Positions 2,358 to 23,454 of a stretch of DNA of 64,000 bases are shown in pieces. Both the position numbers and the translations under genes were made by a program. How positions within the stretch are numbered: position 1 is the stretch's first letter; each line of letters starts with the position of its first letter. The notes under the pieces are model-generated. The model had not been told where the DNA came from. It saw only the letters and a list, made by a program, of their open reading frames with translations, and did not search any database. The DNA comes from Escherichia phage vB_EcoM_Maryam. The DNA lies in sequence record PQ799574.1; one strand, given 5' to 3'.

Positions 2358-4535
2358 TTAGGCCGCAAGGGCCTTCATAGTTTTAGCGATTTGGGAAACT
2401 TCATCATCACTTAAAGAGTTGCGATATCCGATGAAGTCGGAAACAATACGGAATTTCTTGGTAAACTCAGCAACCATTTTATCACTGTTTTTTGAAGCAT
2501 TATTTGATAATACATCAAAAAGATTAGTTACTGTCCAGATGTCATGACCGATGGTATCTTTTCCACCATTAAAATATACACCGCGCAATGAACTAACTAT
2601 ATTAGCGAGTCGTGTATATTCTTCAGAAACTTCATCTGTACTGAAGTACTTCATCATAAAATCTAGTTCAGGATACTTGATAATTTTATCAATATATCGT
2701 TGAGCTGAACTTGAATAACCTACATACTTATCATAATCTACATCATCAAAAGCATCTACATATAAATCACGCAAAGCTTCAAAAATACATTGGCACTGAC
2801 CGAGTTCTTTTACCTTTTTCTGTAAAAGCGGACGAATAACATAAAATTCATTAATGCCAATAAGATTAGCCATACGAATCAAAATATTCATAGATGGATG
2901 ACAAAGAGATGTAGTACCATCCATAGAGAAAATATCAGAACGATGCATATACGCTACATAACCAGTAATTTCATCTGCTTCTGATGTGAGCGTAAATAAT
3001 TCCTCTTTTTCCCATCGCCCATCTTTAATTTCAAACTTAAATGCTGTAGCAGCTTTAGGACGAGGAGCTTTACTTTTAACTACCTTTGGAATATAGCTTT
3101 TAACTAAAGCTTCAATTTCTGACAAATAATGAATGTTAACTTCATCACTTTCAAACATCGCCATAATATCAGGAAGTAAATCAATCTGCGATTCTACTTC
3201 CGGATTAATAAACAGAAGACGCTCATTGTGATGAATATTCAAAGTGTTATTAAATTCACTATCATCTAACGCGTGTGCTAATCCACGGACAATATTAACA
3301 CGATTTTTAATATTATCAATAACGATATTAATTTTTGTTGCATTAATACCAAACAGACGATAACTTGATGCAACGGCTGAAGTTTCATGACTTTGCTTAA
3401 TGCGCTTCAGTCGAGGGTCAAGATTTACTTCATACACAACTCCTGCATTACATAACTTACTATCAGGTTCAAACATGCTTTGCATCTTCTTATATGACAG
3501 ATTTTTAGTCGTAAATTTGACTGAATTACTAATCATATAATCTCGAGCAGAATACCCCATCTTCATCAATTCACGATATGTATGACGGGGAGATGTGGAT
3601 TCTTTAAATCGTTTTACATCTTCATTAAATGCTTTCTCACTGAGTTCTTTAACTCGTTCAATGATATTTTTACGAGTGCGATCATCTAGTGAAAGAGCCT
3701 CGCGAGATGGAGCAATATCAAGTGAACCCATTGGAAACTTAATGTAATTCACTTCATTGCGAATGCTTAGCCAGTTACGGTCTCTAATAACACCATCGAT
3801 AGGATAAACAATACCGCCATAGATAGCATATAATCCACCACGATCAGGCCAGTATCTTTCTGGATTTACACCATAATAATCATCAAAATCCGGAAAATAA
3901 TCAATTTCACGGTCAAGACCATTAATGATAGCCAAATCTTTGAACGGTCGCATGATATAAGAAACTTCATAAGCAAAGTTTCTAAAGTCTTTTTCTTCAA
4001 CTGGAACTACGATTTCAATACCAGTTTTATCATCTGGACCCATTTCTTTTACGAATGTAGGTTTAATCTGTGGACCATCACCATCCATGTAAGCTACATA
4101 ACCACGAATTTCACCTTTATGATACGAAGTAATACTAAACGTATCAGTATAACTAAACGGAGATTTAGAACCTAAACCAAATCCGCCAATAAAGTCATTA
4201 GATTCAGCTTTAGATGAACTGAAGTATGAATTATACAACCCAGGAGAATTATCATCACCTTGAATATCAAAATCACTCATACCCGGACCAAAATCTCGAC
4301 AAACAAATCGCGGGTCTAAACGTCCAGGAACTTGTATGATAAATTTCTCTGGATTTCCATTAAGTGCATGAGCATCAATCATGTTAGTAATCAATTCACG
4401 GACTACTGCGCGAATCTTGTTTGTATACAAATCAGACGACAGAATTTTAAATACTTTAGGAGATGCTGTGATGCTAAATGCTTTCGATTTAGAACCATTA
4501 CCAAGAATTGTTTCTTTTTCAGTGGTGATAATCAT
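2358..4535 (-). CDS. rIIA: rIIA protein (725 aa, GHKL-type ATPase fold)
   Basis: Length identical to T4 rIIA; N-terminal ATPase motifs; synteny. Confidence 0.9.
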
Positions 4536-18786: not shown

Positions 18787-18987
18787 ATGGTACAAAAATT
18801 AATGGCACTTGTTAATGCCATCAAAGGTAATAAAAAGCGTATAGCTTTTACTATTTCTGCTATGGTAGGAATTTTACTCTGGAACTTTATTCTATCACCT
18901 GTTGCAATTGCACATGGTATTAATATTCCAGTAGTTACTCTTGATACATTCGTAGATTTAGCATTTGCTTTAGTTGGGTTAATTTAA
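18787..18987 (+). CDS. small hydrophobic protein (66 aa) on the opposite strand to its neighbours
   Basis: Strong RBS AAGGAGG then ATG; hydrophobic segments. Confidence 0.5.
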   Translation: MVQKLMALVNAIKGNKKRIAFTISAMVGILLWNFILSPVAIAHGINIPVVTLDTFVDLAFALVGLI

Positions 18988-20012
18988 ATCTTAGCATATT
19001 TAGATAACCGCATTTTAGCCATCAACCCCTGGGCAATATTATTTTTCATATATTCCATAATTTGTTCAGGGGTTGCACCTTCCTTTCTAATCATATCATT
19101 AACATCTTTTGATTTCCAGGGAGATTTATCCCAAAACATAACCCTTTCTCCTGCATCAACTAATTTAGTCATTCGCTTAATAGTGTCAGGATGACGAGGT
19201 TCATTATCTAAAACCCACACTCGTCTATCTTTAAATGGAACAACTTCTAGGTCTAATTGACCACCCGTAATAGCTATACCATTTTCAATAAAAAGTGAAT
19301 CTATAGGTCCTTCTAGAACATATACATCACCATCTTTAACTCGTTCGACTCCATATATTTTTGTTGCCTCAGGATAAGCTTTAATGGTGATATATTTTTG
19401 AGGAGCATCTTTCTTTAATGCACGTCCTTGAAAAGACTCAGCTTTTCCATTAGCATTATAAATTGGAATAACAAGACGAGGCTCAGAAATTTCCTTTTTG
19501 TATGTTCCCGGTGCTATGCTATTAACTAATTTAGGCCATTCGGTTGTAAACCAAAGATATTTCCATTTATCCTTTGGAATACAACGAGCTTTTACATATT
19601 TTATAATTGGATGGTCTTCCGCCAGTTTATCTAATCTAACACATGACGGAAGAGATTTAATTATTTTCTTCTCAGGTTGCTTAGGAAGTTCTTTAGGTTT
19701 TTCTACTGGACGACTTTTACCTTTTTCTTTTCTTATTTCAAAGATATACTCACGATATAAATCAGGTTCAAACTCCTTTAAATATATTCCGATTGGTGCA
19801 TGATAATTACAGTTATAACAATGAATATTTCCTTCATTATTATCACCATAATACCATCCACGAGCTTTATTCTGGTCGGTTTTTGAATCTCCACAAACAG
19901 GACATCTAAACCGCAATTTAAAAGTTGAACTATTATTTACTTGTGTGAATTTAGGTAAATGAGCCAATGCACGATACGCAAACTCATTATCAATCCAAGG
20001 TATTGATGACAT
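18984..20012 (-). CDS. 61: DNA primase (gp61), 342 aa
   Basis: Zinc-ribbon CPVCG...CYNC; length identical to T4 gp61. Confidence 0.9.
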   Translation of the reverse strand: MSSIPWIDNEFAYRALAHLPKFTQVNNSSTFKLRFRCPVCGDSKTDQNKARGWYYGDNNEGNIHCYNCNYHAPIGIYLKEFEPDLYREYIFEIRKEKGKSRPVEKPKELPKQPEKKIIKSLPSCVRLDKLAEDHPIIKYVKARCIPKDKWKYLWFTTEWPKLVNSIAPGTYKKEISEPRLVIPIYNANGKAESFQGRALKKDAPQKYITIKAYPEATKIYGVERVKDGDVYVLEGPIDSLFIENGIAITGGQLDLEVVPFKDRRVWVLDNEPRHPDTIKRMTKLVDAGERVMFWDKSPWKSKDVNDMIRKEGATPEQIMEYMKNNIAQGLMAKMRLSKYAKI

Positions 20013-20014
20013 TT

Positions 20015-20179
20015 TTACTCTTCTTTTTCTTTAGATTCCTCTTTTTTCTTTTTAGGAATCTGTTCAGGACCTTTATTTACTACAGCACCTGATGTTGTTC
20101 CAGTAGAGATATTTTCAGGATTACCACCTGAATCTCCAGCGACCATATCTTCTTTAATAAATTCTTTATATGTTTTCAT
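20015..20179 (-). CDS. small acidic/lysine-rich protein (54 aa)
   Basis: My own translation (below track cutoff); TAATATG coupling to upstream ORF. Confidence 0.35.
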   Translation of the reverse strand: MKTYKEFIKEDMVAGDSGGNPENISTGTTSGAVVNKGPEQIPKKKKEESKEKEE

Positions 20180-20225
20180 ATTAACCTCTATTCATAAAAG
20201 CATTAAAAATTTGGTCATCAATAGA
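20177..20225. repeat. 49-nt direct repeat at the 3' end of a 61.x-cluster gene, copy 1
   Basis: 46 of 49 nt identical to 20535-20583. Confidence 0.7.
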
Positions 20226-20537
20226 TGGCGCAGTAATATTTTCTGCATCATTTAGCAAATCATTAATTTCATCAGATAGCATAACACATGTACCTTTATT
20301 TCCTGTAATTGTTACTGCACAATTACGAACGTTTTCTTTATCAAATTTTAGGTTAATATTTTCGTAGTGAAAATCCTTTAATGCCGAATATATCTTTAAA
20401 ATGAAATTGTCTTTTACTACAATAAACCCAACCTCACTATTAAAACGCGGTTCATGGAAACTGTAATAAACCTTTTCATCTATAAAATCGTATGAAATTT
20501 TTTCCATTTTTAAATATGAAAATTCAGAACTATACAT
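20181..20537 (-). CDS. hypothetical protein (118 aa); C-terminal 16 aa duplicated from the next gene
   Basis: Shared C-terminus SIDDQIFNAFMN(R/K)G and 49-nt DNA repeat. Confidence 0.5.
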   Translation of the reverse strand: MYSSEFSYLKMEKISYDFIDEKVYYSFHEPRFNSEVGFIVVKDNFILKIYSALKDFHYENINLKFDKENVRNCAVTITGNKGTCVMLSDEINDLLNDAENITAPSIDDQIFNAFMNRG

Positions 20538-20583
20538 ATTAACCTTTATTCATAAAAGCATTAAAAATTTGATCGTCAATAGA
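20535..20583. repeat. 49-nt direct repeat, copy 2
   Basis: 46 of 49 nt identical to 20177-20225. Confidence 0.7.
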
Positions 20584-21180
20584 AACTTTTACTTTAGGCT
20601 GTTCTTCAAACGGTAATTCATATCCACATATTACAATTTTGTGATCGATACCAAAATACACAGAAGCAATATTATTAATATTATTTTCAGTGAAATCTAA
20701 ATTAACATCAATATCTTTTTGACTAACGCTCAAAGGATAATTAATACGAATAATTCGATTATCTTTAACAAAGATTCCACCGACATACTCTGTGCTGCGT
20801 TTAAAGTTTACACGTTTCCTAAATGAAAAATATTCAGGTTCTTTATGGGCTCGACTCATAGGGCTTAAAGTGTATTCCGAATATGAAATATCAAATCCTA
20901 CACCTTCAATATGAGCCAAAGTGTCATGATTAAACCAATTATAATCGTATGCCAAATCCATTAAATTGTAATATGTGAAAGGCACCGGATTAACATCATG
21001 TGTTGTACCTTTAAAATCTGCCCAGGCAACGATTTCGTTATCTTTAACAATTACAAAAATTGTGTCAATAAGATATCCACGGTTATTTTCATCAGGCGTT
21101 ATATTATAACATTGTGCATCAGGAAATTTACCGTATTTAAACGGCGGATTTTTGTGCATATAATAAATCATATTATTCAC
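20539..21180 (-). CDS. hypothetical protein (213 aa), 61.2-like position
   Basis: ORF; shares 3' end with 20181-20537. Confidence 0.5.
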   Translation of the reverse strand: MNNMIYYMHKNPPFKYGKFPDAQCYNITPDENNRGYLIDTIFVIVKDNEIVAWADFKGTTHDVNPVPFTYYNLMDLAYDYNWFNHDTLAHIEGVGFDISYSEYTLSPMSRAHKEPEYFSFRKRVNFKRSTEYVGGIFVKDNRIIRINYPLSVSQKDIDVNLDFTENNINNIASVYFGIDHKIVICGYELPFEEQPKVKVSIDDQIFNAFMNKG

Positions 21181-21466
21181 CTGTGATTTCGGTTACGATA
21201 TTTTTGTTATTAAAGTTTTTATCGCAATACAGAACATAATTATACTGCATTACACCACCAGACTTAAGTTGTTTTTGCACTTCAGCTTTCATTTTAGGAC
21301 GATCGCGCTCAACGATATTCATAATATCCGCTTCAATTTGAGTTTCAACTTCAGTCTGATCTGCAGTCATAGACCATTCACACAAATCTTTATCATATCC
21401 TGCCATAGCAGGCTGAGCAGCACAAGAAGCCAAAGTAAAAATTGTAGCAAAAATAAATTTTTTCAT
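21173..21466 (-). CDS. sp: Spackle (Sp) periplasmic protein, 97 aa
   Basis: Signal peptide; T4 Sp length and position in the 61.x cluster. Confidence 0.65.
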   Translation of the reverse strand: MKKFIFATIFTLASCAAQPAMAGYDKDLCEWSMTADQTEVETQIEADIMNIVERDRPKMKAEVQKQLKSGGVMQYNYVLYCDKNFNNKNIVTEITGE

Positions 21467-21526
21467 GATAATCTCCTCAGTAGTTTATGTTTATATAGTA
21501 TCTCAATTTCCAACAAAAGTAAACAG

Positions 21527-21826
21527 CTATTTTAAAACTTCTGCGTAATCACATGTTACAAACTGTTTCTCTAGCTTAACGATTTTACGAAAATACCTTT
21601 TATACTGACGAATCTGCCTCTTCGTAGGACGTACAGCAAACTTAATAAATTCCACTCGACCAAATGGAGGACTTTCTTCTGCTGGAATATCTAACACCAA
21701 TTCCCACGTATCTGCAATAAGTGCTTTGAATTGAGTATTTTTCCTGACGTTATACGGAGTAGGTTTAAATAAAACAATATGCATATTATCCTCGGCAATC
21801 CACTTCGCACACTTTCTTGTCATCAA
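21527..21826 (-). CDS. hypothetical protein (99 aa), 61.4-like
   Basis: ORF and position. Confidence 0.4.
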   Translation of the reverse strand: MMTRKCAKWIAEDNMHIVLFKPTPYNVRKNTQFKALIADTWELVLDIPAEESPPFGRVEFIKFAVRPTKRQIRQYKRYFRKIVKLEKQFVTCDYAEVLK

Positions 21827-21968
21827 TGAAAGCTTTAACTAATGCTTTATTAACTTCAGCATATTGAGTAGTAGCCCATTGAACGTCATCTTTCATCATT
21901 GTGATTTCTTTAGTAAACATGCTTTCATTCTTAAACCACCCCATAAAAACTACCTTTACCAATTCCAT
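21786..21968 (-). CDS. dmd: Dmd-like protein (60 aa), antitoxin against RnlA/LsoA-type toxins
   Basis: 60 aa and position immediately downstream of gene 41, as T4 dmd. Confidence 0.55.
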   Translation of the reverse strand: MELVKVVFMGWFKNESMFTKEITMMKDDVQWATTQYAEVNKALVKAFIDDKKVCEVDCRG

Positions 21969-22026
21969 AACAATCTCCTCATTTAACCAACAAGACTACT
22001 ATACCATAGTCTTGTCAGCTTGTAAA

Positions 22027-23454
22027 CTAAAATTTTAATTCATTTGCCAAAGCATCTAACTGAGCTCGAGCTGATTCGTTTCTTTGATAGCGATTCTGTT
22101 CAGCCTGAATCTGTTGTGAACCTGCTACTTCACTCACTTCGGTTGGAGTAGAATCTTGTTCAATTTCTACCCATTTTTGATTTCCTTTTTGAACACCCAT
22201 CAAAAACTTATTCCACTTATTCTTATCACCATATCGTGATTTGATTTGCTTAATAAGTTGTTGTTCAGCAGCTGCTAGCTCCTCAGTTTCAATGACCGCA
22301 AGCATAAAATCAGCTGTTGCTGGAAGACCAGCAGATTCTGCAATATCGCTCATGTTAACATCGGAAGAGTCCCAAGCTTGTTTACCGACCTGTGCTGCAG
22401 TCCAAAGAACAGTTTCGGTTTCAACAGCCAGAGCACGCAATTCCTCTGCGATAGCTTTAACAGTTGTGTAACTATTTTCTGAATAAACTCGGATGCGACA
22501 AGATTTACAAATACCCAGATAGTCGACAATAATGATTGTTGGAACAAAATTCTTTTTGAGCTTCAATTCATTCAAGAGAGACCTGAATGTATTAGCATCT
22601 GCTCCACCAGTAGGGTACTGTTTAACGATTAAACGACCAAGAGTAGATTTCTCACGCCATTTTTCCATTTTTCCTTTATACTCAGCGTAAGAAATATGTC
22701 CATCATCAATATCGTCAAGAGAAACATCGAGCATGTTAGCATCAATACGTTTAGCACAGACTTCTTCGGCCATTTCCATGGAGATATAAAGAACGTTATG
22801 ACCAAGCTGTAAATAATCCGCTGCTAATGAACACAATCCTAATGACTTACCAACGTTAACGCCAGCCATTAAAACGTTCAGTGTTCCTGTTTCAGCTCCG
22901 CCTTTTGTAATTTTATTCAAAATACGAAGTTTAAATGGAACTTTACGAGCTTTATTCATATAAGATAGCCAGCGTGCTTCGTAGTCATCCATCCAATCAT
23001 GACCAACGTAGCTATCAAATGAAATTGATAATGCTTGGCGCATGATGTCAGGAATAGCACCAACATCCGGCATTTTCTTATTTCGTTTTTCCGGAGGAAG
23101 CTCAGCATTAGTTTGAATTTCGATTATTTTAGACGTAGCATTAAACATCGCCCTTTGCTGAACATATTTTTCTGTTTCTTTTACTAACCAGCTGTGGTCT
23201 TCCGGAGAATCAGCCAGTTTTGAAATAAGTGTTTTTACACCAGAATATTCTGTTTCAGTAAATGAACTATTTTCTAATGCAACATTTAACGCATTAATAG
23301 ATGGAACGCTATGGTACTCATTAACATGAGATTTAATTAATTTGAATGTATTTTTAGCTGGACCACTTTCAAAATATTCTGAATCCATATATGGCCAAAC
23401 TTTTGAAAAATAAGCTTGATCAAATATAAGATGAGAAAGAATAATTTCTACCAC
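22027..23454 (-). CDS. 41: replicative DNA helicase (gp41, DnaB-like), 475 aa
   Basis: Walker A GVNVGKS; length identical to T4 gp41. Confidence 0.9.
   Translation of the reverse strand: MVEIILSHLIFDQAYFSKVWPYMDSEYFESGPAKNTFKLIKSHVNEYHSVPSINALNVALENSSFTETEYSGVKTLISKLADSPEDHSWLVKETEKYVQQRAMFNATSKIIEIQTNAELPPEKRNKKMPDVGAIPDIMRQALSISFDSYVGHDWMDDYEARWLSYMNKARKVPFKLRILNKITKGGAETGTLNVLMAGVNVGKSLGLCSLAADYLQLGHNVLYISMEMAEEVCAKRIDANMLDVSLDDIDDGHISYAEYKGKMEKWREKSTLGRLIVKQYPTGGADANTFRSLLNELKLKKNFVPTIIIVDYLGICKSCRIRVYSENSYTTVKAIAEELRALAVETETVLWTAAQVGKQAWDSSDVNMSDIAESAGLPATADFMLAVIETEELAAAEQQLIKQIKSRYGDKNKWNKFLMGVQKGNQKWVEIEQDSTPTEVSEVAGSQQIQAEQNRYQRNESARAQLDALANELKF

Follow-up and report, generated by a model that had tools for sequence, protein, structure and literature searches.

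Few phage inhibitors of the DarTG defence are known; one of them is AdfA, the anti-DarT factor A of T-even phages. T4 gene 61.2 is adfA (PMC11257639, PMC9391042). The RB69 protein gains DarT1 binding and neutralisation by the substitution R164H (bacterial two-hybrid), and the authors of that study propose that different AdfA alleles act on other DarT homologues (PMC11257639). The region that holds the gene has been described as an anti-toxin-antitoxin (anti-TA) island, and its other genes as attractive anti-toxin candidates (Srikant, Guegler and Laub 2022, PMC9391042). Here we analyse this island in a stretch of 64,000 nucleotides (nt; hereafter the window) from Escherichia phage vB_EcoM_Maryam (PQ799574.1). 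In the window, adfA stands in tandem with a small open reading frame (ORF) of 118 amino acids (aa), and a 49-nt direct repeat brackets the small ORF.

A second described system is AdfB (Gp145 of phage ICP1), a small DarT-binding 'antitoxin mimic' with active and inactive natural alleles (PMC11481870). AdfB and AdfA have in common that a small phage protein is proposed to block DarT by direct binding and that activity depends on the allele. AdfB differs in its length of 77 aa, in its phage group and in having no sequence relationship to AdfA (<15% similarity reported; PMC11481870). Our locus agrees with the published anti-TA island in position and gene order; it differs in the 49-nt coding repeat between paralogues, and the evidence presented here is natural polymorphism rather than experimental evolution. 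With AdfA itself the 118-aa ORF shares the C-terminal domain, an invariant C-terminal tail and the location between sp and 61.1, whereas it lacks the N-terminal module and is only 35% identical.

We propose, and consider it probable, that the window carries adfA and a one-domain paralogue of it within the anti-TA island, that their common tail is a selected peptide whose coding sequence doubles as homology for recombination, and that the paralogue is an AdfA-like inhibitor. The large gene and the locus were known, and the small gene adds an uncharacterised member to the same Pfam family. The advances are modest and involve no new kind of system: the paralogous anti-defence gene pair is ordinary biology, and its C-terminal motif is a useful lead.

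AdfA and its one-domain paralogue

The features on which the argument depends are the following.

20015-20179, minus strand: gene 61.1, 54 aa, which flanks the variable interval on the right and is constant (phrog_1823, E 7e-34; annotated as 61.1 in RB14 and RB59)
20177-20225: repeat copy A, comprising the last 14 codons of the 118-aa gene (SIDDQIFNAFMNRG), its stop TAA, and the Shine-Dalgarno sequence (GAGG) and ATG of 61.1
20181-20537, minus strand: the 118-aa gene, identified as a single-domain AdfA paralogue (RB32ORF033c type, with a PHROG of its own, phrog_4122), body plus family tail
20535-20583: repeat copy B, comprising the last 14 adfA codons (SIDDQIFNAFMNKG), the stop TAA, and the Shine-Dalgarno sequence (AAGG) and ATG of the 118-aa gene
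20539-21171, minus strand: adfA (T4 gene 61.2), anti-DarT factor A, 210 aa from its probable start (Pfam PF23813; phrog_3781)
21173-21466, minus strand: sp (spackle, 61.3), the constant left flank (Pfam T4_Spackle, E 7e-45)

The large ORF matches the Pfam family PF23813, 'Anti-DarT factor A', from its residue 4 and over profile positions 1-211 (E 1e-137; 456.8 bits, cut-off 27), a match that identifies it as AdfA, T4 gp61.2. An earlier note on this DNA, made from the letters alone, had given its length as 213 aa. That figure is correct for the mechanical ORF, which opens with GTG and extends to 21180. AdfA homologues have 208-216 aa and start with MIYYMHK or MLYQMHK, and because they begin in this way adfA probably starts at the ATG at 21171 and encodes 210 aa. 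The AlphaFold2 (AF2) model of AdfA, with a predicted local distance difference test (pLDDT) of 71.7, consists of two successive modules of strands followed by helix, and then a terminal helix. The N-module aligns weakly, in register, with the single-domain family (hhalign 35%, E 4e-4), and the Smith-Waterman score of the N-half against the C-half (42.5) was reached by 21 of 500 shuffles, which is weak support for a duplication. AdfA is likely to be an old internal duplication of one domain, with the N-module probably its degenerate copy.

The entire 118-aa protein aligns in BLASTP with AdfA residues 101-213 (35% identity, E 2e-11), and its match to the Pfam AdfA profile (31.9 bits, above the cut-off of 27) is confined to profile positions 113-211. 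In hhalign, the C-half of AdfA and the single-domain family align with a probability of 98.7% (E 3e-16). The AF2 model of the 118-aa protein (mean pLDDT 82.8) shows five strands and then two helices, with residues ~10-95 above 90, followed by a poorly placed C-terminal helix at 106-115 (pLDDT ~50). It thus has one five-strand, two-helix domain plus the tail, and not the two-module architecture of ~210 aa. Structure prediction and hidden Markov model (HMM) search of both proteins agree that the large one is AdfA and the small one a single AdfA-type domain. The similarity of the ORF ends, which had first drawn attention to the pair, includes a shared tail but is not restricted to it, and these alignments identify the 118-aa ORF as a single-domain paralogue of the AdfA C-terminal half, not an unrelated cassette.

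The earlier note supposed that the 118-aa gene may be a recent module of unknown function, but the gene is old and has relatives, and it has already been annotated as similar to AdfA: it is 'RB32ORF033c, similar to gp61.2' in the GenBank records of RB14 and RB32, and '61.2' in RefSeq T2 and PP01. A search of the literature for 'RB32ORF033c' found no paper. The bodies of the two paralogues are saturated at synonymous sites (the same codon is used in 12 of 32 identical residues), and relatives of the 118-aa gene at 45% identity occur in Gaprivervirus, another genus; the duplication is therefore ancient, older than the Tequatrovirus radiation. Among Tequatrovirus copies the ratio of nonsynonymous to synonymous substitution rates (dN/dS) is 0.03-0.33, indicating a maintained protein-coding gene that is neither a remnant nor recent. 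A profile search against PDB sequences gave nothing below E 0.08, NCBIfam gave zero matches, and Foldseek against BFVD returned family members only.

Several database labels for this family are misleading. In the Gaprivervirus phage EAWsc9 (retrieved locus L023), a tail-bearing gene of 145 aa (2562-2999) is called 'serine/threonine protein kinase' and a gene of 122 aa (3001-3369) 'DUF2528 domain-containing protein'. Other records mislabel AdfA or the small paralogue as 'major capsid (domain-containing) protein'.

The repeat and the conserved C-terminal tail

Both ORFs end alike and run into the same TAATATG junction, as first noted: SIDDQIFNAFMNRG closes the 118-aa ORF and SIDDQIFNAFMNKG the 213-aa ORF, the common pattern being SIDDQIFNAFMN(R/K)G. 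We confirm that the two 49-nt segments, 20177-20225 and 20535-20583, differ at 3 positions (46/49 identical, 94%); they form one direct repeat family with a spacing of 358. When up to three mismatches are allowed, the 64-kb window holds only these 2 copies, against 0.00 expected (100 shuffles). The sp stop and the adfA ATG at 21171 form a third TAATATG junction. The last two codons and the stop, (A/C)GA-GGT-TAA-TATG (GAGGTTAATATG), supply a Shine-Dalgarno sequence (GAGG), a stop, and a start for the next gene, which, depending on the genus, is 61.1, the 118-aa gene, a gene of 63-65 aa or a tifA-like gene. In RB14, where the 118-aa gene occurs without adfA, repetition is limited to a 14-nt ribosome-binding-site (RBS) block, TAGAGGTTAATATG.

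The tail peptide, S[IV]DDQIFNAFM[NK]R[GD], ends members of all subfamilies that we recovered by a degenerate IMG/VR scan, two profile searches and annotated loci, and their bodies are 20-45% identical. There are at least six such subfamilies: AdfA, 208-216 aa (Tequatrovirus, Mosigvirus); the 118-aa type (Tequatrovirus); a 116-122-aa type (Gaprivervirus); a 122-148-aa type (Dhakavirus, Gaprivervirus); a 125-aa type; and a 120-aa type. In Mosigvirus, Dhakavirus and Gaprivervirus the tail is also found where only one copy is present. Among 1.84 billion representative proteins, an HMM search gave 7 clusters (50% identity) at E<=1e-10, all of this phage family, and weaker matches to BACON and TAL repeat proteins were discarded as spurious. 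Judged by these searches, the AdfA-domain superfamily is small, phage-restricted and found in Tevenvirinae only. To address host mimicry of the tail, 185,579 bacterial and archaeal genomes were scanned at the DNA level with a degenerate pattern for DDQIFNAFM, and no match was found.

In the searchable literature, the primary AdfA paper excepted, we found no description of a superfamily-wide invariant C-terminal peptide, no report that adfA-lacking phages (e.g. T2) carry a one-domain paralogue, and no report of the tail coinciding with insertion-deletion (indel) boundaries.

Between genera the DNA of the tail varies synonymously (ATT/ATC/ATA, GAT/GAC, CAA/CAG, GCT/GCC/GCA, TTT/TTC, AGA/CGA) while DDQIFNAFM stays constant, which places the primary constraint on the protein. 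This comparison identifies the repeat as a conserved C-terminal motif, not an insertion scar. The peptide is amphipathic and helical (IxxxIFxxFM), and AF2 places a helix there in both models; that helix and the linker before it are the lowest-confidence part of both (pLDDT 48-63). The tail might be kept purely for the folding or stability of the domain, its effects on recombination being incidental and evolutionarily unimportant, and the amphipathic helix predicted in both models speaks for such a role. We regard this as unlikely: the modelled confidence drops at just this helix and its linker while the 118-aa body exceeds 90, a structural helix should co-vary with bodies that are 20-30% identical and yet this one is near-invariant, and the recombination patterns described below (a K/R site that tracks the downstream gene, a mosaic adfA) show that recombination does act on the locus.

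Invariance together with low-confidence placement suggests instead that the tail is an interaction motif rather than a core element. Type II antitoxins carry short amphipathic C-terminal toxin-binding helices on a flexible linker behind a variable body. The AdfA tail is like them in layout, with no homology. AdfA-T18 fusions, in which the C-terminus is blocked, still bound DarT1 (strain table, PMC11257639), so DarT1 binding does not depend on a free C-terminal end. A near-invariant peptide found family-wide is an obvious target for mutagenesis. A clamp-binding motif resembling the PCNA-interacting peptide (PIP) was also considered for the tail and rejected, the spacing of Q and aromatic residues being unfit.

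We next weigh the reading that the repeat is conserved as DNA or RNA, for translational coupling, as a regulatory hairpin or as a cassette boundary, and not as a peptide. Phages exchange modules at boundary sequences such as the T4-type promoter early stem-loop (PeSL) cassettes, which are short conserved junctions beside variable genes. At each junction, the last 13 nt of the repeat do hold a Shine-Dalgarno sequence, a stop and a start for the gene that follows, and a megablast comparison of Tequatrovirus with Dhakavirus C6 detects only the 46-nt tail of a 1.7-kb query. However, predicted RNA folds at both junctions are not more stable than shuffles (z = -0.80 and +0.35), with neither a stable stem-loop nor a terminator-like hairpin at the ORF boundary. 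No terminator-like site was found in 19900-22100, and the 14 promoter-like matches in the region (12.4 expected from shuffled sequence) show no excess except the known site upstream of dmd. From genus to genus, third codon positions change freely but the peptide does not. Unlike PeSL-type boundaries, the AdfA tail lacks a stem-loop or promoter, is coding, and appears to be selected as a peptide. A nucleotide-level element is thus quite improbable.

Gene content and recombination between sp and 61.1

The suggestion of a plastic 61-41 interval is borne out, since all four possible arrangements between sp and 61.1 are found in deposited Tequatrovirus genomes: sp-adfA-61.1 in RB59 (T4-type), sp-118-61.1 in RB14, sp-61.1 with neither gene in phiC600P9, and sp-adfA-118-61.1 in the window, PhiZZ6, Sf22 and one IMG/VR contig. 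T4 records contain AdfA, and a T4-derived record matches the AdfA side of the junction only. The 118-aa protein is present at >=60% identity in 298 phage records, with T2, RB14 and RB32 among the carriers; the adfA/118 junction is present in 157 phage-collection records and full-length AdfA in 486. Subtracting the 157 from the 298 leaves ~140 genomes with the small gene alone, and T2, RB14 and RB32 all carry it without adfA. Surveys of adfA presence and absence thus undercount the family, because phages described as lacking adfA, such as T2, have a one-domain paralogue at the locus. A parallel tandem of two other subfamilies exists in Gaprivervirus, where sp is followed by a 145-aa gene and a 117/122-aa gene that both carry the tail and run into a TAATATG or TAGTATG junction.

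The indel boundaries of the 118-aa gene fall within the repeat. The cassette of the earlier note therefore survives as a module that is present or absent with its boundaries in the repeat, but the repeat was not made by insertion, being a motif conserved in all homologues. Two findings had been named there as fatal to a cassette, a tail conserved in every homologue and an interval of unvarying content: the first is what we observe, whereas the content does vary.

A true insertion scar would make the 118-aa gene a foreign cassette and the 49 nt its duplicated target or attachment sequence. The bracketing of exactly one gene by a direct repeat is what one would expect from such an event, as is the absence of that gene from many relatives, e.g. 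RB59, and from T4 records. The insert is, however, homologous to its neighbour over its full length; the repeat is coding, and its peptide is kept in every member, including those of single-copy genomes and other genera; just the RBS block is repeated where the gene is alone (RB14); and each ORF in the 61-41 interval has an assignment, with none encoding an enzyme and no integrase, transposase, homing endonuclease or adjacent recombinase among them. This reading is already largely refuted, and we give it very little credence. A recent tandem duplication of the adfA 3' half in this lineage, with the tail as the part that has yet to diverge, would suit a small gene that is adjacent, co-oriented and homologous to the AdfA C-half, but it is scarcely credible given the 35% identity and saturated synonymous sites of the bodies, the relatives in Gaprivervirus and the gene's occurrence without adfA in T2, RB14 and RB32.

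Traces of recombination are visible at the tail and in adfA itself. In the window, the two tails use the same codon in 10 of 12 identical residues, against the 12 of 32 in the body (Fisher p = 0.008). The two tails of Sf22 differ by a single nucleotide, and in the Gaprivervirus phage DK-13 both paralogous tails carry the lineage-specific codons GAC-GAC-CAG...GCC-TTC...AAG-CGA and the change N->K. The tail adjoining 61.1 always ends in AGA-GGT (R) and the tail adjoining the 118-aa gene always in AAA-GGT (K), regardless of the AdfA allele upstream. In its 5' part (window ~20990-21171), adfA falls into two deeply diverged allele classes, MIYYMHKNPPFKYGKFPD... and MLYQMHKCKDTYKYKGAQ... (loci L002, L018, L019, L021), with 47-67% nt identity over ~180 nt between flanks of 93-100%. 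Sliding comparison shows that PhiZZ6 adfA has a T4-like 5' part and is 100% identical to the window from its 3' part onwards, across the 118-aa gene and most of 61.1; in PE37 the pattern is reversed, and the crossovers lie inside adfA. The gene is a mosaic, and recombination shapes the locus. T4 amplifies and deletes DNA in the same region via microhomologies of 6-10 bp (PMC9391042), which makes it plausible that the 358-bp unit is lost or amplified through the 49-nt repeat. From these patterns we infer that recombination at the tail may be the mechanism of gain and loss.

According to the explanation we favour, the tail peptide, held by purifying selection on the protein, would be a short amphipathic helix on a flexible linker, as predicted. 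The ~45 nt common to all family members, which adjoin a constant flank, would form a stretch of homology for T-even recombination, and recombination at the tail would swap or homogenise family members and remove or bring in others. The four arrangements found in nature and the direct repeat of the window would be its products. The 118-aa gene would share a transcript with dmd, tifA, sp and adfA that begins at the early promoter upstream of dmd, and its product would bind and neutralise a DarT-type (or other) toxin directly, with a specificity unlike that of the adjacent AdfA. Residue 164, at which R164H acts in RB69 AdfA, lies in helix alpha1 of the C-domain, the part that the 118-aa protein retains. 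By analogy with AdfA, we infer that the 118-aa protein could be a stand-alone toxin-binding inhibitor with its own specificity, widening the repertoire of the anti-TA island.

Several observations weigh against this explanation. Concerning function, the position equivalent to R164H (NIN[H/R]IAS in homologues) is N167 in the window AdfA (NINNIAS) and N72 in the 118-aa protein (NVRNCAV); neither has the His of the DarT1-neutralising allele, and with Asn in place of His or Arg at the specificity site neither corresponds to a characterised allele. T4 deleted for adfA showed no DarTG1 phenotype, even when adfN was missing too (PMC11257639), so that the physiological target is uncertain even for AdfA alleles. 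The tail helix is modelled with low confidence (pLDDT ~50). Concerning recombination, the codon test involves 12 tail codons only, all T4-preferred. The tails of EAWsc9 have four synonymous differences, so homogenisation is not universal, and no recombinant caught in the act was identified. The AAA at every tandem junction fits a single origin equally well as recurrent events, and repetition is confined to the 14-nt RBS block where the 118-aa gene stands alone.

IMG/VR locus L017 also has the Asn variant, a third allele; His is found in most homologues and Arg in some RB69-type sequences.

A bolder extension, which we consider doubtful, is that the invariant tail helix of 12-14 residues is a common docking element (a 'warhead' or adaptor), that the bodies set the toxin variant, and that the ~45 nt with the RBS are a portable recombination joint. 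The single conserved site to which it docks may lie on DarT-type ADP-ribosyltransferases, in their conserved catalytic or single-stranded-DNA groove, or on a host or phage factor that is itself conserved. If this were true, T-even phages would carry plug-and-play arrays of anti-toxin cassettes, with one, two or none per genome and different pairs by genus, analogous to bacterial polymorphic immunity gene arrays. On the explanation we favour, the shared tail provides built-in homology for gain and loss, which would help to explain the gene-content differences among near-identical T-even phages at this locus.

Neighbouring genes and the island

The 1.7 kb region is 99.6% identical to Escherichia phages vB_EcoM-101117BS1, 303Ecol101PP and others, and the source of the window is a Tequatrovirus genome. 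The ORFs follow one another on the minus strand in the order gene 61 primase, 61.1, 118-aa ORF, 213-aa ORF, sp, 61.4-like ORF, dmd and gene 41, so that both ORFs under study lie between sp and 61.1/gene 61. The remaining features are listed here.

18984-20012, minus strand: gene 61, primase (from the ORF list)
21527-21784, minus strand: tifA (61.4), ToxN inhibitor, 85 aa from ATG (Pfam DUF7279, phrog_2375)
21786-21968, minus strand: dmd (61.5), RnlA/LsoA toxin inhibitor (Pfam Dmd, E 1.6e-46)
21998-22026, minus strand: promoter-like site upstream of dmd, TTTACA-17-TATAGT with an extended TG, the best consensus match of the region

As in the described anti-TA island, dmd, tifA and adfA form a cluster in the 41-61 interval behind a single early promoter. 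Such a promoter has been reported upstream of dmd (PMC9391042), and the site at 21998-22026 likely starts a dmd-tifA-sp-adfA-118-61.1-61 transcript.

The mechanical ORF for tifA has 99 aa, starts with TTG and spans 21527-21826. The probable real product has 85 aa and starts at the ATG at 21784, directly after the dmd stop, in agreement with the published length of TifA (gp61.4, 85 aa; PMC9391042). A further TifA/DUF7279-like ORF of ~70 aa (…GRVTTQAYVARPTKRQ[IL]RKLKK…), unannotated, starts at the TAATATG right after a tail-bearing gene in Dhakavirus C6 (L004, ~2807-3004, minus strand) and in DK-13 (L024, 3311-3508). It is present in DK-13 and not at the same junction of EAWsc9, an indel located precisely at the tail junction.

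The 54-aa gp61.1 (…DMVAGDSGGNP…TGTTSGAVVNKGPEQIP.KK…) corresponds to the C-terminal third of a 155-aa Mosigvirus protein (phrog_2086, positions 109-154; 2870-3337 in the retrieved AV112 locus, L025). By this alignment, 61.1 would be either a stand-alone fragment of a longer gene or a formerly separate gene that was fused into one.

Finally, a hydrophobic ORF of 66 aa lies on the plus strand at 18787-18987 and shares 4 nt with the 3' end of gene 61 (dam.1 / RB32ORF030w). Its position is conserved in RB14, RB59, Sf22 and others, and it is labelled a predicted membrane protein in Sf22 and 'holin family' in one Gaprivervirus.

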